Shown here piece by piece: positions 3,194 through 12,908 of a stretch of DNA of 19,227 bases; position 1 is the stretch's first letter, and each line of letters begins with the position of its first letter. Below the pieces are notes generated by a model. The model saw only the letters and a program-made list of their open reading frames with translations, had not been told where the DNA came from and did no database searches. The DNA comes from a virus (lineage: Duplodnaviria > Heunggongvirae > Uroviricota > Caudoviricetes): IMG/VR virus record IMGVR_UViG_2778261379_000001; one strand, given 5' to 3'. The position numbers and the translations under genes were made by a program.

Positions 3194-3994
3194 TTAACCG
3201 CGCTTTGCCTTCTGCGTCGCGGTGGTTTTTCGTGTTGCAGGCTTCCGCGTTGTCTTTTTACTTTTGCTGCTTTCGTCCTGCGCCTGCTGTGCGCTGGCGT
3301 CTTCTGGTTCGGCTGCGGAATCGGCTTTTTTCAGGGCGCGGGAAAGGGTTGCAATCTCGCGTTTCACACCTGCGTTCGGGTTCAGGTGCATCGCTTCGCG
3401 CAGCAGCTTCAGTGATGAGGCCATGTTGTCTGCATCGGTCAGGCCACGACGGGCAAAGGCACACGCCTTGCATAATTTGGCGCGCACTTCGTCCGGCATG
3501 TCCTGGTTGGCGATAATTTCCCAAAGTGTGTCCAGTGGTTCGATAAAGGCGGATAAATCCGCGTCGGCATCCGTCCCAGCCTGCGTCAGTACCGGGTTGC
3601 AGATTTCTTCGGTCAGTACCGTGGCAGCAGTACGGCCAAAGTTATCCGGCATGATGAGGTTGTGACGGACCACATATGCACCAATACGCAGCGCCAGCGG
3701 AAGATCGCCGCAGTCAATCGCCCACACCATCAGCGTGGCAATTACTTCGTCCTGTTGCCCGCCGTCAGCCTCCAGCGTTCCCTCAATCCAGCCGGAAAAG
3801 TCCGGCAACAACTCTTTTTTGATGGCGGCTTTCGCGCTTCTGGCCTGTATGGCCTTTAGCCTGGCCTGTGCCAGACGCAGACGATACAGCACCTCTTCAT
3901 GCGCGGTACACGCGGCGTGGTCCACACCTTCATTCGCCCGGCCTGCGCGCTGTGCCATCACGTTCTGCCAGTGTTGTTGTGCAGGAGTAATCAT
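3194..3994 (-). CDS. M: terminase endonuclease (small) subunit, gpM-like
   Basis: 266 aa at the P2 gpM position between N and L. ATG with SD GGAGAG upstream. Confidence 0.8.
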   Translation of the reverse strand: MITPAQQHWQNVMAQRAGRANEGVDHAACTAHEEVLYRLRLAQARLKAIQARSAKAAIKKELLPDFSGWIEGTLEADGGQQDEVIATLMVWAIDCGDLPLALRIGAYVVRHNLIMPDNFGRTAATVLTEEICNPVLTQAGTDADADLSAFIEPLDTLWEIIANQDMPDEVRAKLCKACAFARRGLTDADNMASSLKLLREAMHLNPNAGVKREIATLSRALKKADSAAEPEDASAQQAQDESSKSKKTTRKPATRKTTATQKAKRG

Positions 3995-6106: not shown

Positions 6107-7858
6107 ATGATTCAGGACGCTTTTGTGCGCCAGCGTGCGCGGCAACTTTACTGGCAGGGTTATCCGCCCGCAGAAATATCACGTCTGATGGGAATAAACC
6201 CGAACACGATTTATGCGTGGAAAAAACGTGACCAGTGGGATGAAACGCCACCCGTGCAGCGTGTCACGCAGTCCATCGATGCGCGCCTCATCCAGCTTAC
6301 TGAAAAACAGAATAAAACAGGCGGTGACTTTAAGGAAATAGACCTGCTGACCCGGCAGCTTAAAAAGCTGCATGATGGCCAGCCGGATGTGATGGCCGCA
6401 GGAAAGAAAGGCCGGGCGAAAAAACTCAAAAATCATTTCACGCCGGAACAGATTGCCGCACTGCGGGAAAAAATCATCAGCAGGCTGGAGTGGCATCAGC
6501 GGGGCTGGTTTGACTCCCTGACCCTTTGCAGGGAAGCCGGGATACGTAACAGGATGATCCTGAAATCCCGACAGATTGGGGCGACCTGGTATTTTGCACA
6601 GGAAGCACTGCTGATGGCGCTGCGTGACGATGTGGCGCAACCTTACCAGCGTAACCAGATTTTTTTGTCTGCGTCGCGTCGTCAGGCGTTCCAGTTTAAA
6701 AGCATTATTCAGAAGGCCGCGGCTGAAGTTGATGTGGAGCTGAAAGGGGGCGATAAAATCATCCTCTCCAACGGCGCAGAGCTGCATTTTCTCGGCACTT
6801 CTGCTGCGTCGGCACAGTCCTATACGGGCAATTTTTATTTTGATGAATTTTTCTGGGTCAGTCGCTTTGCTGAACTGCGCAAGGTGGCTGGCGCTATGGC
6901 AACCCTCAGCGGACTGCGGCGCACCTACTTCTCCACGCCATCCACCGAAACGCACGAGGCATACGCCTACTGGAACGGCGACCGCTGGAACGAGAAAAAG
7001 GCCTCGCATAAACGCCAGCGTTTTTCTGTGGACTGGAAAACGCTGCATAATGGGCTTATCTGCCCTGACCGGACGTGGCGGCAAATTGTCACGCTGGAAG
7101 ATGTGGTTAATCACGGCTGGAAACACACCGATATCGACGAAATTCGTGATGAAAACACCGAAGACGAGTTCCTCAATCTCTATATGTGTGAGTTTGTCCG
7201 CGAAGGGGAATCGGCATTTAACCTGAATATCCTGATTGGCTGCGGTGTTGACGGATACGACGACTGGAAAGACTGGAAACCTTTTGCTCCCCGCCCGATG
7301 GGGAATCGTCCGGTATGGATTGGGTATGACGCAAACGGCAGTAGTGGCAACGGCGACAGCGGCGCTGTGTCCGTGGTGGTTCCTCCGGCTGTTCCTGGCG
7401 GCCGTTTTCGAACGGTGGAGACGCGACGCGTTCAGGGGCTGGAGTTTGAAGAACAGGCCAGAGTCATTGAAGAGTTCACGTGTCGCTACAACGTGGAACA
7501 CATCGGCATTGATGTGACGGGCGGGAACGGGGAGGCTGTTTATCAGATAGTGAAGCGGTTTTTCCCTGCTGCTATTCCGTACACCTTCACGCTGTCATCA
7601 AAACGGTCGCTGGTACTGAAAATGCTGCAAATAATGCGTGCCGGGCGGTGGGAATACGATCGCGCCGAACGCGAGCTGGTCGCGGCCTTTAACGCCGTGC
7701 GTAAGGTGAAAACACCGGGCGGCTTTATCACTTACGAAACGGACCGCGCGAGGGGGATCAGCCACGGCGACCTTGCGTGGGCAACCATGCTTGCTGTCAT
7801 TAACGAACCAATTGGCGGCGAAGGAGAAAACGAGCGTTTCATGGTTATGGAGTTCTGA
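6107..7858 (+). CDS. P: terminase ATPase (large) subunit, gpP-like
   Basis: 583 aa. N-terminus LYWQGYPPAEISRLMGINPNTIYAWKKRDQWDE matches remembered P2 gpP. Stop overlaps the Q start (TGATG). Confidence 0.9.
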   Translation: MIQDAFVRQRARQLYWQGYPPAEISRLMGINPNTIYAWKKRDQWDETPPVQRVTQSIDARLIQLTEKQNKTGGDFKEIDLLTRQLKKLHDGQPDVMAAGKKGRAKKLKNHFTPEQIAALREKIISRLEWHQRGWFDSLTLCREAGIRNRMILKSRQIGATWYFAQEALLMALRDDVAQPYQRNQIFLSASRRQAFQFKSIIQKAAAEVDVELKGGDKIILSNGAELHFLGTSAASAQSYTGNFYFDEFFWVSRFAELRKVAGAMATLSGLRRTYFSTPSTETHEAYAYWNGDRWNEKKASHKRQRFSVDWKTLHNGLICPDRTWRQIVTLEDVVNHGWKHTDIDEIRDENTEDEFLNLYMCEFVREGESAFNLNILIGCGVDGYDDWKDWKPFAPRPMGNRPVWIGYDANGSSGNGDSGAVSVVVPPAVPGGRFRTVETRRVQGLEFEEQARVIEEFTCRYNVEHIGIDVTGGNGEAVYQIVKRFFPAAIPYTFTLSSKRSLVLKMLQIMRAGRWEYDRAERELVAAFNAVRKVKTPGGFITYETDRARGISHGDLAWATMLAVINEPIGGEGENERFMVMEF

Positions 7859-8904
7859 TGAGCAGAAAAAATAAAAAAGTGCGCATGAGTTCACGCATTG
7901 ATCTCGCTGATGCGCTCAGGAAAGAATCATCGCTCAGTGCATTCACATTTGATGGTCCTTATCGCCTGACCGGGCATGACCTGCTGGACAATATGTACTG
8001 TGCTGATAACGGGCGGTGGTATGAAACCCCGGTGGACTGGTACGGTCTGGCAAGAGCAGCCCGGCAAACGTCCTGGCATCAGTCTGCGCTTTACTTTAAG
8101 CGCAATGTATTACTCGGTTGCTACATCCCGCACCCGCTGCTTTCCCGGCAGGATTTCTCGGCGCTGGCGCTGGACTGGTTTGTGTTCGGTAACGCATTCC
8201 TTGAGCTTCGAAGCAATATGCTCGGCGAACCGCTTAAATTACGGCACGCCCTGGCGAAATACATGCGACGCGGAAGCGATCTTGAATCATGGTGGTATGT
8301 GCAGGATGGCAAGGACGCGTTTCAGTTTCGTCCTGGCAAAGTGTGCCACCTGATGAATCCGGATATTAACCAGGAAATCTACGGCATGCCGGAATATCTT
8401 GGCGCATTACTCTCGGCCAGCCTTTCTCATTCGGCGGACATGTTCAGAAAACTGTACTACGACAACGGATCCCACGCCGGGTGCATCATCTACATCGGTG
8501 CAGCGCAGGTAAACCGCGAAAGCATGGACTCCCTGAAAGAAACGCTACAGGGGGCACGTGGTGGTGGTGCGTTTAAAAACGTGCTCATTCATGCGCCCAA
8601 CGGGGGCAAAGAGGGGGTGCAAATTTTGCCGTTCCAGCAGATCACCGCAAAAGATGAATTCATGAATGTTAAGGCGGCATCCCGTGATGATGTGCTGGCT
8701 GCGCACCGCGTTCCGCCGCAACTGATGGGGGCGATGCCGGGCGAAAAAAGTGCGTTTGGCGATGTGGAGAAGGCAGCGCGGGTTTACGCAATTAACGAGC
8801 TGATGCCCGTTATGGAGGCTATGAAGCACATCAATGACTGGCTTGGCGAAGAGGTGATCCGTTTTAACTCTTATGCTCTTCTTGATGAAAAAACAGCCCC
8901 GTGA
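7858..8904 (+). CDS. Q: portal (capsid vertex) protein, gpQ-like
   Basis: 348 aa with blocks NGRWYE, FVFGNAFLE, DINQEIYGMPEYL, HRVPPQLMG, WLGEEVIRF matching remembered P2 gpQ. Confidence 0.9.
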   Translation: MSRKNKKVRMSSRIDLADALRKESSLSAFTFDGPYRLTGHDLLDNMYCADNGRWYETPVDWYGLARAARQTSWHQSALYFKRNVLLGCYIPHPLLSRQDFSALALDWFVFGNAFLELRSNMLGEPLKLRHALAKYMRRGSDLESWWYVQDGKDAFQFRPGKVCHLMNPDINQEIYGMPEYLGALLSASLSHSADMFRKLYYDNGSHAGCIIYIGAAQVNRESMDSLKETLQGARGGGAFKNVLIHAPNGGKEGVQILPFQQITAKDEFMNVKAASRDDVLAAHRVPPQLMGAMPGEKSAFGDVEKAARVYAINELMPVMEAMKHINDWLGEEVIRFNSYALLDEKTAP

Positions 8905-8920
8905 TGGGGCTGTCCTTTTT
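8888..8920. terminator. bidirectional intrinsic terminator between convergent Q and the 174-aa gene
   Basis: Stem ACAGCCCC (8893..8900) pairs with GGGGCTGT (8906..8913) around a 5-nt loop. A T-run follows on the plus strand (8916..8920) and on the minus strand (complement of the A-run 8888..8892). The hairpin overlaps the Q stop codon. Confidence 0.5.
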
Positions 8921-9443
8921 ACCAGAGTTGAACCATTTTCTGGGTGCCGTCAGGCTTGAGATTATCAATTTCAGAGAGAACGTAATATTGAATGGCTTCA
9001 CAAACGGTGGTGTAGGGTGAATTACCTTCTTTAAGTGGCACGATATTATTATTAACGCGAACCTGTATTTCATCGTTATACATTGCGATCGAAACAGGAG
9101 TGTGCACGAACGCGACTTCGCCAGGTGTGTCGTCAACCACCGTTTCAATACTAAAAGTCAGTTTTCGCTCATCATTGCTGCCCCGTGCTTTGGGGGTAGC
9201 GGCAGGGATCTGGGATAAAGGCATTCTGCGAAATCCTTCGGCTGCTTCCAGTCCGCATGAAACGTAATGCTGGCGATTACCGTCGCTATCTGTCCAGGTC
9301 TGTGATGGCAGCTCCAGCGAGATTTCATAAGCATCAACAATGCCCTGGGCAAGGCGTACAAGCGGGGTCAGATCTTCATTGCGGCGAAAGCTCTCCTTTA
9401 CCTGCTCCCGTTTTTCTCTTAACTGCTTGTAATTAATGACCAT
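8919..9443 (-). CDS. hypothetical protein, 174 aa (orphan accessory gene convergent with Q)
   Basis: Start taken at ATG 9443 with SD GGAGG 7 nt upstream (MVINYKQLREKREQVKESF...). The track start 9482 is a GTG. No motif I recognise. Ends in the shared terminator hairpin. Confidence 0.55.
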   Translation of the reverse strand: MVINYKQLREKREQVKESFRRNEDLTPLVRLAQGIVDAYEISLELPSQTWTDSDGNRQHYVSCGLEAAEGFRRMPLSQIPAATPKARGSNDERKLTFSIETVVDDTPGEVAFVHTPVSIAMYNDEIQVRVNNNIVPLKEGNSPYTTVCEAIQYYVLSEIDNLKPDGTQKMVQLW

Positions 9444-9542
9444 AAGACAGCCTCCATTGATTTCTTTGCTCGTATTTTGCACTTATGAAGTATGGTCGGC
9501 AAGGTGCCGTATCGCTGACGCGCTTCGCTTGTCTGCTGCTTC

Positions 9543-9571
9543 GCCGGGGCATAAAAAATTTATGCCCCGGC
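9543..9571. repeat. perfect 13-bp-stem palindrome GCCGGGGCATAAA/TTTATGCCCCGGC with 3-nt loop
   Basis: Read directly from the sequence. No T-tract on either side, so not a classical intrinsic terminator. Lies about 100 bp upstream of the 174-aa gene start. Confidence 0.5.
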
Positions 9572-9848
9572 TCTCCAGCTCCTGTATCAATCAGATAATT
9601 TCACGACGCCTTCCAGTTTATCGCCACCATCGACGGTCAGACTCTTACGCAATTCCACCGCGTTGACTGCATGTTCTCGCTGCCTCAGTGCGATTTTGAC
9701 GGCCTTACCTTTCACCCCATCAAATCAAAAGCCCTCACGCCTTTTTCATGCTCAGCGTGAGAAATATGGCCATTCTGTTGTGTCTCTGCGACATCGTTCA
9801 GGGAATGCTATTTACCCCCTGAAACGCGGGCTGTTCCCCCGTCACCTG

Positions 9849-9872
9849 CGCGCAGAAAAAGCGCGTTTTTTT
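9849..9872 (+). terminator. candidate plus-strand intrinsic terminator
   Basis: CGCGC-AGAAAAA-GCGCG followed by TTTTTTT. No convincing coding ORF lies upstream on the plus strand. Confidence 0.35.
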
Positions 9873-9942
9873 GTGCACGCACGGATCCTTGACGGATCCA
9901 GCCGCCATGCGGGCCGGAAGGGTAAAAAGTCGTTCAAAAAAA

Positions 9943-9969
9943 TTGTGCAAATTTGTGCACTTTTGTGCA
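9943..9969 (+). repeat. three direct TTGTGCA heptamers at exact 10-bp phasing (9943, 9953, 9963)
   Basis: Sequence reads TTGTGCAaatTTGTGCActtTTGTGCA. The last copy ends about 20 bp upstream of the candidate -35. Confidence 0.45.
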
Positions 9970-9988
9970 GGTAAGCATGCCTATATAT

Positions 9989-10017
9989 TTGACCGTGGCT
10001 TGCCTTTGATGTAGTTT
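9989..10017 (+). promoter_or_regulatory. candidate sigma70-type promoter for the AT-rich cassette
   Basis: TTGACC (9989..9994), 17-bp spacer, TAGTTT (10012..10017). Weak -10, pattern match only. Confidence 0.25.
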
Positions 10018-10069
10018 ATACGTCACAAAAACCACAAAACGTGGTTATGATTTCTATGAGGGGGTTGAT

Positions 10070-10105
10070 ATGAAAAAAATGTATGATGAATTTGATGGTT
10101 TCTAA
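10070..10105 (+). CDS. candidate 11-codon leader peptide (MKKMYDEFDGF)
   Basis: ATG preceded by GAGGGGG SD with about 6-nt spacer, stop TAA at 10103..10105, followed 20 nt later by an intrinsic terminator and then the first cassette gene. Confidence 0.25.
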   Translation: MKKMYDEFDGF

Positions 10106-10125
10106 GCTACGTTGACCTCTAATGA

Positions 10126-10152
10126 GGCGGGGATTTGCTCCCCGCCTTTTTT
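10126..10152 (+). terminator. intrinsic terminator / candidate attenuator just upstream of the cassette
   Basis: GGCGGGGA-TTTGC-TCCCCGCC followed by TTTTTT. The stop of the hairpin is 14 nt before the 10167 start codon. Confidence 0.45.
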
Positions 10153-10166
10153 ATGGATGAAATAGG

Positions 10167-10664
10167 ATGAACCCAATAACACTACAAATCATCAGCAATG
10201 CTATTGTTCTGCTTGGCGTTTTGGTTGCCATTGGAACCATTATCTACAATGTGCGTACCGCAAAAAAAACTCAAACGGCCAACTTTCTTTTTGAGAGTCG
10301 GCAAGATATGCAATATATAGAGTCATTGCATACCCTGAAACAAGTGCATCGTTCAGGCAAATCATTTCGTTCTTATGTTTTTCCTTGTGATGGTTGCATA
10401 ATAACAGATGAAGAAATGGCCGAGCGTCGAAAATTTCAATATATTTTAAATTTTTACGAGCGAGTTGCTGTAAGTATTCGTGAAGGTATTTATGATGAAA
10501 AAATGATAAAAAGAACATCTTACACAACAGTTGTAGAGACATATGATATTGCCGAGCCATTAATTAAAGCAATCAGAGAAAGCATTAATTCGGATACTAC
10601 ATATCAAGAATTCGAATGGTTAGTAAGAAGATGGAAAGCTAATCCTTTACGGAAAAACAAATAA
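10167..10664 (+). CDS. hypothetical membrane-anchored protein, 165 aa (one N-terminal TM helix plus soluble domain); first gene of AT-rich cassette
   Basis: ATG start. N-terminus ITLQIISNAIVLLGVLVAIGTIIY is a clear TM helix followed by a charged, mixed soluble region. Codon usage is strongly AT-biased relative to neighbours. No motif I recognise. Confidence 0.65.
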   Translation: MNPITLQIISNAIVLLGVLVAIGTIIYNVRTAKKTQTANFLFESRQDMQYIESLHTLKQVHRSGKSFRSYVFPCDGCIITDEEMAERRKFQYILNFYERVAVSIREGIYDEKMIKRTSYTTVVETYDIAEPLIKAIRESINSDTTYQEFEWLVRRWKANPLRKNK

Positions 10665-10703
10665 TGTTTTACCCTTTAATTTACAAGTAACACAGGGGGA
10701 AGT

Positions 10704-11546
10704 GTGACACAGAATCCGTTTTCATTTTATGACTTTTTGGGCTATCTAATTCCAGGTGGGTTATTCCTGTTTATCCTTTTTTTGTTTTCTATTGAAATTA
10801 ACCCTGTTTATATAGAAGGTATTCTTAACCATATCCTGAAATATAAAGAAATAATAAGTGTATTTATATATGTGGTATTAATCGTTCTATCATATATTTC
10901 AGGTCACTTCATATCTATTCTATCATCCTGTTTAATTGAAAAATACATGAACAGTAAACTTGGGTATCCTTCAATTTATCTGTTTTCTAAAAGAAGCTCC
11001 CTGAAAATAAAACGACATAATACTAAGTTCAGTATAGTTAATTTTATTCGTGGAGTTTTTTTATTTCCTGTATCAGCTTTTGATAAAGCAGAACATCATA
11101 AAACCACACTGCATTCTATACTTATTAAAGTCTTTTGGCCGCAAATACGAGATGGTTATATAAATGTTTTTTCTGTATCTACGCTATATCGACGTAAGGG
11201 CTTGAGGGGCGATCTTTTTCGCCTTGCTTATCATTATGTGTATGAACATTCTAAAAATCATCAGGTGAAAATGCAAAACTATGTTGCTTTGTATGGTTTT
11301 TGTAGAAACATTACATTTGTTTTTCTCGCTTCAGTCTGGTTGCTTATGTTCCTGCTCCTTCTATCCTTTTTAATAGATATAAATATCAGACTGTTACCTT
11401 TTTGTTTTCTTCTCTTGTTTTGTATTGCTGCATCCCGAGTATTTTATTATGGTTTTGTTAAGTATTATCGCCGCTATTCTCTTGAGGTTTTAATGGCATT
11501 TGCGGTACTTCAGCACGATAAAAAAACTTCGGCAATTTCATCATGA
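10704..11546 (+). CDS. hypothetical polytopic membrane protein, 280 aa (about four TM helices: two N-terminal, two C-terminal, with a central cytosolic region)
   Basis: GTG start with GGGGGA SD just upstream. Hydrophobic segments at about residues 12-29, 52-75, 197-220 and 225-245. AT-rich like the upstream gene, 39-bp gap, same strand. Confidence 0.65.
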   Translation: MTQNPFSFYDFLGYLIPGGLFLFILFLFSIEINPVYIEGILNHILKYKEIISVFIYVVLIVLSYISGHFISILSSCLIEKYMNSKLGYPSIYLFSKRSSLKIKRHNTKFSIVNFIRGVFLFPVSAFDKAEHHKTTLHSILIKVFWPQIRDGYINVFSVSTLYRRKGLRGDLFRLAYHYVYEHSKNHQVKMQNYVALYGFCRNITFVFLASVWLLMFLLLLSFLIDINIRLLPFCFLLLFCIAASRVFYYGFVKYYRRYSLEVLMAFAVLQHDKKTSAISS

Positions 11547-11557
11547 TTTGAAACATT

Positions 11558-11580
11558 GGCACCCTGTTAGCAAGGGTGCC
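11558..11580. other. hairpin GGCACCCT-GTTAGCA-AGGGTGCC between the convergent cassette and parR
   Basis: Read directly from the sequence. No adjacent T-tract on either strand. Confidence 0.3.
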
Positions 11581-11629
11581 AGAATGATGTGTTGGTCTGT
11601 ATTTTATTAGTTCACATACAATTATCAGA

Positions 11630-11944
11630 TTATTCTGGGAATAAGGTCTGAATATTCTTTTTTATTTTATAAAAATTGCATTCAACTCCGCTAGGCTGAT
11701 TATCCTGGTATGTTTCCTTGATGCTAACGGTATTGAAGGGGAGGTTGTCCTCTGGCCATTCGGCCATCCAGTAGGCAAATGCTGGGTTGCGCTTTATGAG
11801 CGCTAGCCCAGCCAGAAAGGCCGCGCGTTGCGCGCGGCTGCGTTCGGAGGCTGGCAGGCTATCGAGGTAATTGCACGCCTCCTGTTCACTCTTGACGGCG
11901 GCGGGCTTCAGATAGAAACTTATCCGTCTGGTTGGTGTCGTCAT
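11630..11944 (-). CDS. parR: ParR-like partition adaptor (ribbon-helix-helix centromere-binding protein)
   Basis: Internal ATG at 11944 with SD AAGGAG 7 nt upstream, 4 nt after the parM stop. N-terminal region RRISFYLKP...LDSLPASERSRAQRAAFLAGLALIKRNP aligns with remembered R1 ParR (RRTIAFKLNP...LDSIPQGERSRLNRAALTAGLALYRQDP). Confidence 0.6.
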   Translation of the reverse strand: MTTPTRRISFYLKPAAVKSEQEACNYLDSLPASERSRAQRAAFLAGLALIKRNPAFAYWMAEWPEDNLPFNTVSIKETYQDNQPSGVECNFYKIKKNIQTLFPE

Positions 11945-11948
11945 TGGT

Positions 11949-12908
11949 TTACTCCTTGTCCATTGCGTACAGCCCATTAACCAGAGCAAACTGTGGCACC
12001 CCGTCCGCGATGAAAGTCGCATTAACTCCGCAGACTTCGCGGATAGCGGGTGCCACAATCTCCGCCCCTCCACCGACAACCATCACCCGCCCGTAACCCG
12101 AAAAAACCGCCAGCGCGCGGATCACGCGTTGTTTCAGTGTTTCTTCCTTTTCACGAATAACCGCCATCAGGCTGGCGTAATGCGCGTCATTGTGGATGTG
12201 CTGGCGCAGCCAGGCTTCATCATGGCGATGTTCGATAATGGTATTGGCGATGTGGTGACTGGTGCGCATACCGTTAGTGGCCATCACCGACAGTACGGCA
12301 TCGGCCATCAGGGAAACGCCTACGTGTGGATCGCAAAACACCTGGCTGATACCTGCCAGTTGCCCTTGAACCTTTGCCACATCCAGCGTGGTTCCGCCTA
12401 AATCCACAATCAGCAGGGATTCAAACGGACTCATGTCAGCCAGTGCTTTAAAGCCAGCCGGAATGGATTCAGGCATAACCCGCACGTTACGGATAGTGAA
12501 TGCTTCGCCGTTCTGGTATTCCACCGGGCGCATAACGTTCGCTTTTTTGCGGTTGATGTTGGCCATGTCCGGCTGTGCGTTTGTGTCGAAATACTCGCTC
12601 AGTGGCAGGGTGACAACCACATCCACCTCCTGTGGCGTGATGCCTGATTTGACCAGCGCGTGATGAATGGCGATTACATTCACATCGCTGTACTGGTATT
12701 GCGTGTCGGTCGTCTGGACAAAGCGATCGCTAACCGGATCAAAACCATAGCGCACGCCATCAAGCATGTAGTTCGCGGGCTGCATGCCACCGAACGGCGC
12801 AGACCATTCCGACTTGAAGCTGTTCGGGCTGATGGCGTTGCGGCGTTCGCCATTCTCAGTCCATGCCAGCTTGATGTTGGTGGAGCCGTCGTCGATACAA
12901 ATTTTCAT
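11949..12908 (-). CDS. parM: ParM/StbA-family actin-like segregation ATPase
   Basis: 319 aa. N-terminus MKICIDDGSTNIKLAW...ISPNSFKSEW...YQYSDVNVIAIHHALVKSG closely matches remembered R1 ParM (MLVFIDDGSTNIKLQW...ISPNSFKREW...WQYSDVNVVAVHHALLTSG). Good SD AAGGA. Confidence 0.85.
   Translation of the reverse strand: MKICIDDGSTNIKLAWTENGERRNAISPNSFKSEWSAPFGGMQPANYMLDGVRYGFDPVSDRFVQTTDTQYQYSDVNVIAIHHALVKSGITPQEVDVVVTLPLSEYFDTNAQPDMANINRKKANVMRPVEYQNGEAFTIRNVRVMPESIPAGFKALADMSPFESLLIVDLGGTTLDVAKVQGQLAGISQVFCDPHVGVSLMADAVLSVMATNGMRTSHHIANTIIEHRHDEAWLRQHIHNDAHYASLMAVIREKEETLKQRVIRALAVFSGYGRVMVVGGGAEIVAPAIREVCGVNATFIADGVPQFALVNGLYAMDKE

Follow-up and report, generated by a model that had tools for sequence, protein, structure and literature searches.

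Beside the portal gene Q of a P2-family prophage lies a 174-codon gene on the opposite strand that is very probably an accessory gene of the moron type. It was studied in a stretch of 19,227 nucleotides (the window; IMG/VR record IMGVR_UViG_2778261379_000001). The window represents a P2-family prophage of Escherichia coli sequence type 131 (ST131) that belongs to Xuanwuvirus (P88-type): it is 100% identical to many ST131 (O25b:H4) chromosomes, RefSeq annotates the region as a P2-family prophage, and isolated phages related to it are assigned to Xuanwuvirus (P88 type). On balance, the gene and its signals probably form an autonomous moron of about 628 bp, the payload of which is a conflict-related, non-enzymatic accessory protein. 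In outline this is a real, cleanly delimited and ordinary-looking moron at a known accessory site, with a novel-looking fold and an unusually consistent placement of its family in two phage lineages.

The borders of the inserted unit are drawn by sibling prophages that do not carry it. Alignment with the prophage of UTI89 gives about 95% homology up to 8879 and again from 9515, and positions 8880-9514 are missing in UTI89. The portal proteins of the window and of the UTI89 type differ only in their last 5 residues (EKTAP vs TQPTS), and a remnant of the original Q stop (CTGA) is found at 9515-9518. The hairpin that follows this remnant in the window is present in insert-free prophages (UTI89) about 25 nt downstream of the Q stop, and the insertion therefore landed between Q and the original Q terminator (tQ). 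The insert appears to have supplied a new terminator that Q now shares. The hairpin of this new terminator has folding energies of -21.5 / -16.9 kcal/mol (z -5.1 / -4.5 versus shuffled sequence) and U-runs on both strands, and the Q stop codon is contained within its loop; the initial annotation had already taken it for a terminator common to the two convergent genes, and it does have the makeup of one.

The candidate promoter, TTGCCG-17-CAAAAT, lies in the 71 bp that separate the ATG from the right insert border. The Salmonella homologue (63% protein identity) has TTGTCT-17-CAAAAT at an equal distance, although the flanks have diverged, and several further members of the family, amounting to about half of the loci scanned, have a -10-like element that stops some 30 nt short of the ATG. 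Of the Shine-Dalgarno sequence, GGAG is kept upstream of the Salmonella and Trabulsiella homologues. A longer reading from a GTG at 9482 is unsupported, as homologues all start with MVINY or MxITY. No exact late-activator site (TGT-N12-ACA) lies directly upstream of the gene. A late promoter of the Ogr/B type was considered for the moron and rejected: the TGT-N12-ACA pattern occurs twice in the window versus 4.4 times expected by chance, and the nearer occurrence (9776-9793), 333 bp upstream, stands in sequence common to insert-free siblings and so is not the moron promoter. That dyad is centered about 70 nt upstream of a 42-codon open reading frame (ORF) with a GTG start (9587-9715, minus strand), located between the probable cohesive-end (cos) region and the old tQ hairpin. 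This small frame is annotated in some records (P88_4B11, H10407) and is kept in moron-free siblings; in E. coli strain 135 it shares the frame of a divergent member of the moron's protein family, and the two are annotated as a fusion of 236 aa.

The composition of the gene is distinct as well, with a GC content at third codon positions (GC3) of 47% as compared with 59-69% in Q, P, N, ParM, and A. The initial annotation had called the codon usage not AT-biased, which fails against the phage core and holds only in that the gene is far less AT-rich than the cargo genes beyond cos. The gene matches the definition of a moron because of its presence or absence among relatives, its own terminator, its probable own promoter, and its foreign composition. 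Together with sharp borders, a conserved promoter footprint, and dispensability, these features strongly support, as far as sequence comparison reaches, the structural half of that first reading, namely a moron at an accessory position.

The 174-codon ORF is a genuine gene, because the ratio of nonsynonymous to synonymous substitution rates (dN/dS) between E. coli alleles is 0.06-0.09 and because full-length homologues extend down to 20-25% identity. Such a ratio points to strong purifying selection, and the description of a well-formed opposite-strand gene with a good Shine-Dalgarno sequence has been borne out. Several truncated copies are present in databases, as might be expected of a chance ORF or a decaying pseudogene, but the dN/dS values, the 395 of 397 E. 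coli copies that cover at least 80% of the gene, the persistence of full-length homologues to 20% identity, and a confident fold prediction leave that explanation with a negligible probability.

The gene is also dispensable. Positions 8700-9990 were used to query 5426 complete E. coli genomes; the locus was found in 1281 of these and the gene in 397 of the 1281, or about 7% of all complete genomes, including many of ST131. In about half of the sampled rows the flanks are joined without the insert, spanning about 656 bp versus 1270 bp. The gene is missing from P2, 186, P88_4B11, and about two-thirds of sibling prophages, and in enterotoxigenic E. coli H10407 it is interrupted by IS1 (locus L018, 5248-6388). 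Dispensability follows from these absences and from the IS1 disruption.

The same observations bear on a possible role in the particle. The gene adjoins the portal and terminase genes in P2-like phages and opens the late operon of lambdoid phages, a setting that would suit an accessory virion or packaging protein, be it head-internal, portal-associated, or a helper of cos or terminase. However, the roughly two-thirds of siblings that lack the gene have portal, terminase, and cos sequences that are about 95% identical, and plaque-forming relatives are found both with it (PhiR44_2, vB_EcoM-705R2) and without it (P88_4B11). The disruption in H10407 argues likewise, as do the orientation opposite to the late operon and the missing exact late-activator site directly upstream. 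Pfam and NCBIfam scans returned no conserved P2 structural or packaging protein, in keeping with the initial annotation, and the gene is not present in all relatives. A virion or packaging role is improbable, and the protein does not appear to be needed for the virion or to belong to the swappable cargo on the gpA side.

The boundary of that cargo depends on the position of cos. The cos of the present phage group is unlike that of P2 or 186, and no similarity to either was detected in the window, even when 3 mismatches were allowed or local alignment was used. One linear Xuanwuvirus record starts at about window position 9924, and this start and the 72-80% cross-genus conservation of the block listed in Table 1 together place cos in that block. 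Cos thus probably lies within it. Inside it are two direct repeats of ACGGATCC (9882-9900) and three copies of TTGTGCA (9943-9969), both likely to serve in terminase binding or as accessory sites of cos. Phages with other cargo are homologous to the window up to 9969 and again from 11799. By this comparison, the swappable cargo would correspond to 9970-11798, and the 174-codon gene would be found outside it, on the Q side of cos. P2 and 186 have nothing but a terminator between the portal gene and cos, which are 167-176 bp apart, so that an extra gene in this interval is a true difference from the two phages. The initial annotation had Q of P2 ending about 120 bp from cos with nothing in between; the actual distance is 167 bp to the cohesive end, and tQ occupies part of it. 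Its placement of the present gene between Q and cos is correct for the probable cos.

Table 1. Features of the portal-cos interval in the window, with positions, strand, and basis
Feature	Position	Strand	Basis
Portal gene Q, 3' end remodeled by insertion	7858-8904	+	Comparison of portal proteins
Whole inserted unit, about 628 bp, missing from sibling prophages	8887-9514	-	Alignment with insert-free siblings
Bidirectional intrinsic terminator common to the 174-aa gene and Q	8893-8913	both	RNA fold, U-runs on both strands
174-aa coding sequence (WP_000236495.1), PHROG 5091 member	8919-9443	-	ORF call, profile match, composition, dN/dS
Shine-Dalgarno sequence GGAGG, 7 nt 5' of the ATG (9443)	9451-9455	-	Sequence
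Candidate sigma-70 promoter, TTGCCG (9502-9497), 17 nt, CAAAAT (9479-9474)	9474-9502	-	Conserved hexamers; activity inferred
Strong hairpin, displaced ancestral tQ, now upstream of the moron promoter	9543-9571	both	Fold -31.6/-29.3 kcal/mol
Probable cos region	9825-9969		Sole non-coding stretch with cross-genus conservation (72-80%; Salmonella and Trabulsiella relatives)

The cargo itself has a GC content of 30-36% and a GC3 of 26-27%. Its two products are a DUF4760 protein that is hydrophobic at the N-terminus (10167-10664) and a 280-residue protein (10704-11546), the latter with only a weak PADLOC match, to Csx27 (E 1e-5). The two genes are a candidate defence system, listed in Table S5 of Rousset et al. 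2022 and outside the table of evaluated systems (PMC9122126). Ahead of the DUF4760 gene come, in this order, a promoter-like site (10022-10051), an ORF of 11 codons, MKKMYDEFDGF (10071-10106), and a strong terminator hairpin (10124-10148); the segment 10022-10148 may represent a leader-peptide or attenuator system serving the cargo operon.

It might be supposed that the 174-residue protein works with these two proteins as a multi-gene system spanning cos. The three are nearly always found together in ST131, and they make up one "arrangement" of Table S5 (167, 164, and 161 occurrences). This co-occurrence is clonal, however. The upstream cargo was compared in 34 gene-carrying IMG/VR loci with enough upstream sequence and in the window, and these 35 loci fall into 20 unrelated cargo clusters, with the gene itself 95-100% identical; other cargo also stands beside the gene in PhiR44_2, O111 11128, and SK6988. 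The gene is therefore not the partner of the adjacent cargo. Homology with other-cargo phages spans the gene up to 9969 and breaks only beyond it, and the gene differs from the cargo in strand and in GC3 (47% vs 26%), with the cos block between them. A system shared with the DUF4760 cargo is highly improbable and was rejected on account of the roughly 20 cargo sets and of the homology break at 9969. Published arrangements that lump the gene with neighboring defence cargo should accordingly be split.

The initial annotation had described the gene as an orphan, a label that can be withdrawn. The protein matches PHROG 5091, a family of unknown function, with an E value of 1.4e-67 (residues 1-168 on profile positions 1-164 of 164), and a profile search over 1.84 billion cluster representatives matched 87 of them, mostly 155-175 aa in length. 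All 50 aligned relatives match PHROG 5091, and a Pfam scan of these 50 gave stray single matches only and no common family. Single-protein scans for more distant members found little. The members with organism names are all from Enterobacterales (Escherichia, Salmonella, Trabulsiella, Klebsiella, Serratia, Morganella, Yersinia, Xenorhabdus, and Pectobacterium), and all are annotated as hypothetical.

Two genomic contexts recur. In P2-like prophages the gene is convergent with the portal gene in Salmonella (63% identity) and in Morganella (23%), and E. coli strain 135 (NZ_CP080260.1; locus L071, 3269-3979) has a 20%-identical member in the same portal-adjacent slot (hhalign probability 98.6%). 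By sequence, this slot seems to carry highly divergent "alleles" of one family. The Trabulsiella guamensis homologue (46%; locus L006, 6738-8053) is placed differently, just after gpA and on the gpA side of the cos block, with HicAB-like and Phd/Fic toxin-antitoxin cassettes between it and that block. In lambdoid phages the gene is found between the antiterminator Q and the lysis cassette (holin) in all seven phage or prophage loci. Portal-adjacent and Q-holin positions are both classic accessory slots. The remaining contexts are short metagenomic contigs (P0076, P0103, and P0095 among them) that are uninformative on gene context. No chromosomal defence island was found among the PHROG 5091 contexts, and there are only two plasmid records.

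The lambdoid placement raises the possibility of a late-phase or lysis-associated helper, which might for instance adjust the timing of lysis or protect DNA during replication or after packaging. In six of the seven loci the gene stands 146-220 bp upstream of the holin gene, and this spacing is kept across four holin families and several antiterminator families. The interval between Q and S is, however, the classic moron slot of lambdoid phages, the position occupied by stx. A hairpin terminator also lies 3' of the gene in each of the three lambdoid loci scanned (L011, L014, L062), where it separates the gene from the holin. Given moreover that the P2-like copies are far from the lysis genes and that the protein has no membrane segment, such a helper role is very improbable.

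The protein is predicted to be soluble (maximum Kyte-Doolittle value 0.86) and mildly acidic, with an isoelectric point of 5.0 (family median 5.1), and its 174 residues include no transmembrane segment or signal peptide. An AlphaFold model built on the 50-sequence alignment is confident (predicted local distance difference test score 90, predicted template modeling score 0.80) and shows an alpha+beta arrangement of two N-terminal helices, a 6-7-stranded antiparallel sheet, and a C-terminal helix. Columns conserved in the family are mostly hydrophobic or aromatic (Y39, S42, L43, L45, W50, Y60, V61, F97, and T101), and K152, which is near-invariant, is Q in the clade of the window. No catalytic signature is seen in the PHROG 5091 alignment. 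As stated initially, there is no recognizable motif, Pfam and NCBIfam scans finding no domain. A sequence profile search of the PDB returned noise only (E at least 0.1), and a BFVD search was negative. The best fold matches were P1 DarA, actin-capping protein, and the FP domain of PI31, which resemble the model in a general alpha+beta layout with helices on an antiparallel sheet.

From these elements a working mechanism can be proposed. The unit would consist of a weak sigma-70-type promoter, a Shine-Dalgarno sequence, the ORF, and the bidirectional intrinsic terminator, inserted between the last Q codons and the original terminator of Q on the Q side of cos. Host RNA polymerase would transcribe the gene from this promoter independently of the phage late activator, and the protein would be made in the lysogen and/or immediately after DNA entry, where it may act through binding another protein, not as an enzyme. 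The combination of an own sigma-70-type promoter with the lack of a late-activator site directly upstream suggests transcription in the lysogen or at early entry, and such timing in turn favors a conflict-related role. Within that role, exclusion or defence on behalf of the lysogen is a possibility to be entertained tentatively, and the moron design and the hotspot location lean toward lysogenic conversion.

Alternatively, the protein may serve the phage as a counter-defence factor, expressed from its own promoter near the genome end or with the late genes, that neutralizes an immune sensor or effector or sequesters a signaling molecule. The family is seen only in temperate phages and prophages and never in chromosomal defence islands, and it is extremely diversified at one fixed slot (20-63% identity), as in an arms race; this restriction and this divergence lean toward counter-defence. 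A small, acidic, soluble protein lacking catalytic motifs, encoded about 400-500 bp from the probable cos end, would also suit such a function. On the other hand, the fold matches are at noise level, no better than those to unrelated eukaryotic proteins, and selection within E. coli is strongly purifying, not diversifying. In a published anti-defence scan with DefenseFinder, just 28 P2 elements contained such systems. Counter-defence is, on this evidence, rather unlikely.

Several observations weigh against a self-transcribed, conflict-related protein. Promoter activity, expression timing, binding mode, and biological role are all inferred from sequence, and the candidate promoter scores 8/12, which is below threshold and escapes a standard consensus scan. 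The lambdoid copies head the late operon, where strong late transcription is expected, and the P2-like copies face the late P-Q operon, so that the two contexts disagree on expression timing. The idea of a protein binder draws solely on the missing enzymatic signature, and the fold matches are weak and heterogeneous, with unrelated eukaryotic proteins scoring equally well. PADLOC-DB has no family that matches at E values up to 1, and the defence candidacy raised by the initial annotation gains nothing from this check. All PHROG 5091 contexts found are temperate phages or prophages or short unassignable contigs, and such phage-only contexts speak for a benefit to the phage no less than for protection of the host. 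Machine-learning estimates moreover flag only 15-32% of unknown P2 proteins as defensive (PMC13586616). It may nonetheless be suggested, with due reserve, that PHROG 5091 is a structurally unprecedented family of conflict proteins that act in counter-defence or exclusion by binding, are self-transcribed at tolerant slots of two phage architectures, and diversify rapidly.

Comparison with known systems places the moron among familiar relatives. The morons of temperate phages (the Juhala/Hendrix concept from HK97 and HK022; lambda bor and lom) are likewise dispensable single genes with their own terminator, present or absent between collinear relatives and unlike the phage core in composition, and they have their own promoter, for which the present gene has a candidate; expression from the prophage, for the 174-codon gene, is predicted only. 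The ctx gene of phage phiCTX reportedly lies between cosL and the portal gene, as described by Nakayama in 1999. Both phiCTX ctx and ORF1-4 of phiRSY1 (PMC5694545) thus have the same genome position as the present gene. Their cargo differs, comprising a cytotoxin and a Vgr-like protein in Pseudomonas and Ralstonia hosts, whereas the window has a single predicted cytoplasmic protein. According to PMC5694545, which cites Dodd & Egan 1996 and Nakayama 1999, P2-like phages gain foreign genes in the interval from cosL to the portal gene with no disturbance to the neighbors.

On a larger scale, the gene is located between gpA and gpQ, the interval known as the defence-rich hotspot of P2 (PMC9122126; PMC13586616; bioRxiv 10.1101/2024.10.15.618418), which holds old and tin and in which the neighboring cargo swaps rapidly. 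In contrast to the hotspot cargo, the 174-codon gene stands on the Q side of cos and takes no part in the swapping of the gpA-side genes, and no known defence model matches it. A working analogy for a binder-type exclusion protein is offered by Tin and Fun(Z) of P2, which are likewise encoded by small single genes that are non-essential, carried by prophages, and located at accessory sites in this phage family. Tin differs in its length (253 aa), in its location on the other side of cos, and in its co-transcription with old, and no sequence or fold relationship of the 174-residue protein to Tin or Fun(Z) was found. The lambdoid members of PHROG 5091 occupy exactly the slot of stx and other Q-S cargo; unlike stx, the family encodes no toxin and no signal peptide, as judged from the 174-residue protein, and it is also present in P2-like phages at an unrelated slot.

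The position of the gene is not new, and the protein has already been listed by Rousset et al. 2022, where WP_000236495 appears 167 times as "hypothetical" in Table S5 and is not in Table S2 of evaluated systems (PMC9122126). A literature search for this accession or for the PHROG number found no paper. The interest of the family is in its recurrence at two classic accessory slots and in a fold that is confidently predicted by modeling and has no characterized relative. Since the exact borders of the unit are known, it can easily be cloned with its native signals. If defence or counter-defence activity were true, PHROG 5091 would be a new single-protein family and would give meaning to a second sub-site of the P2 hotspot, on the Q side; if there were no activity, the gene would be an ordinary hypothetical moron.

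The surrounding gene order follows the RefSeq annotation. Terminase small subunit, capsid, and scaffold genes (all minus strand) are followed by the terminase large subunit and portal genes (plus), then by WP_000236495.1 (minus), the DUF4760 protein and a hypothetical protein (plus), the ParM-type partition genes, and a 940-residue replication endonuclease (minus). An Rfam scan of 8700-12200 gave sub-threshold matches only. The partition module, of the ParM/StbA plasmid type, spans 11630-12908 between the cargo and the endonuclease gene; putative partition systems are found in about one-quarter of P2-like phages (Rousset et al. 2022, PMC9122126). The gene for the terminase small subunit gpM (3194-3994) is an uninterrupted frame of 266 codons and of normal length in the window, and in strain 4/1-1 it is flagged by RefSeq as a pseudogene with an internal stop.

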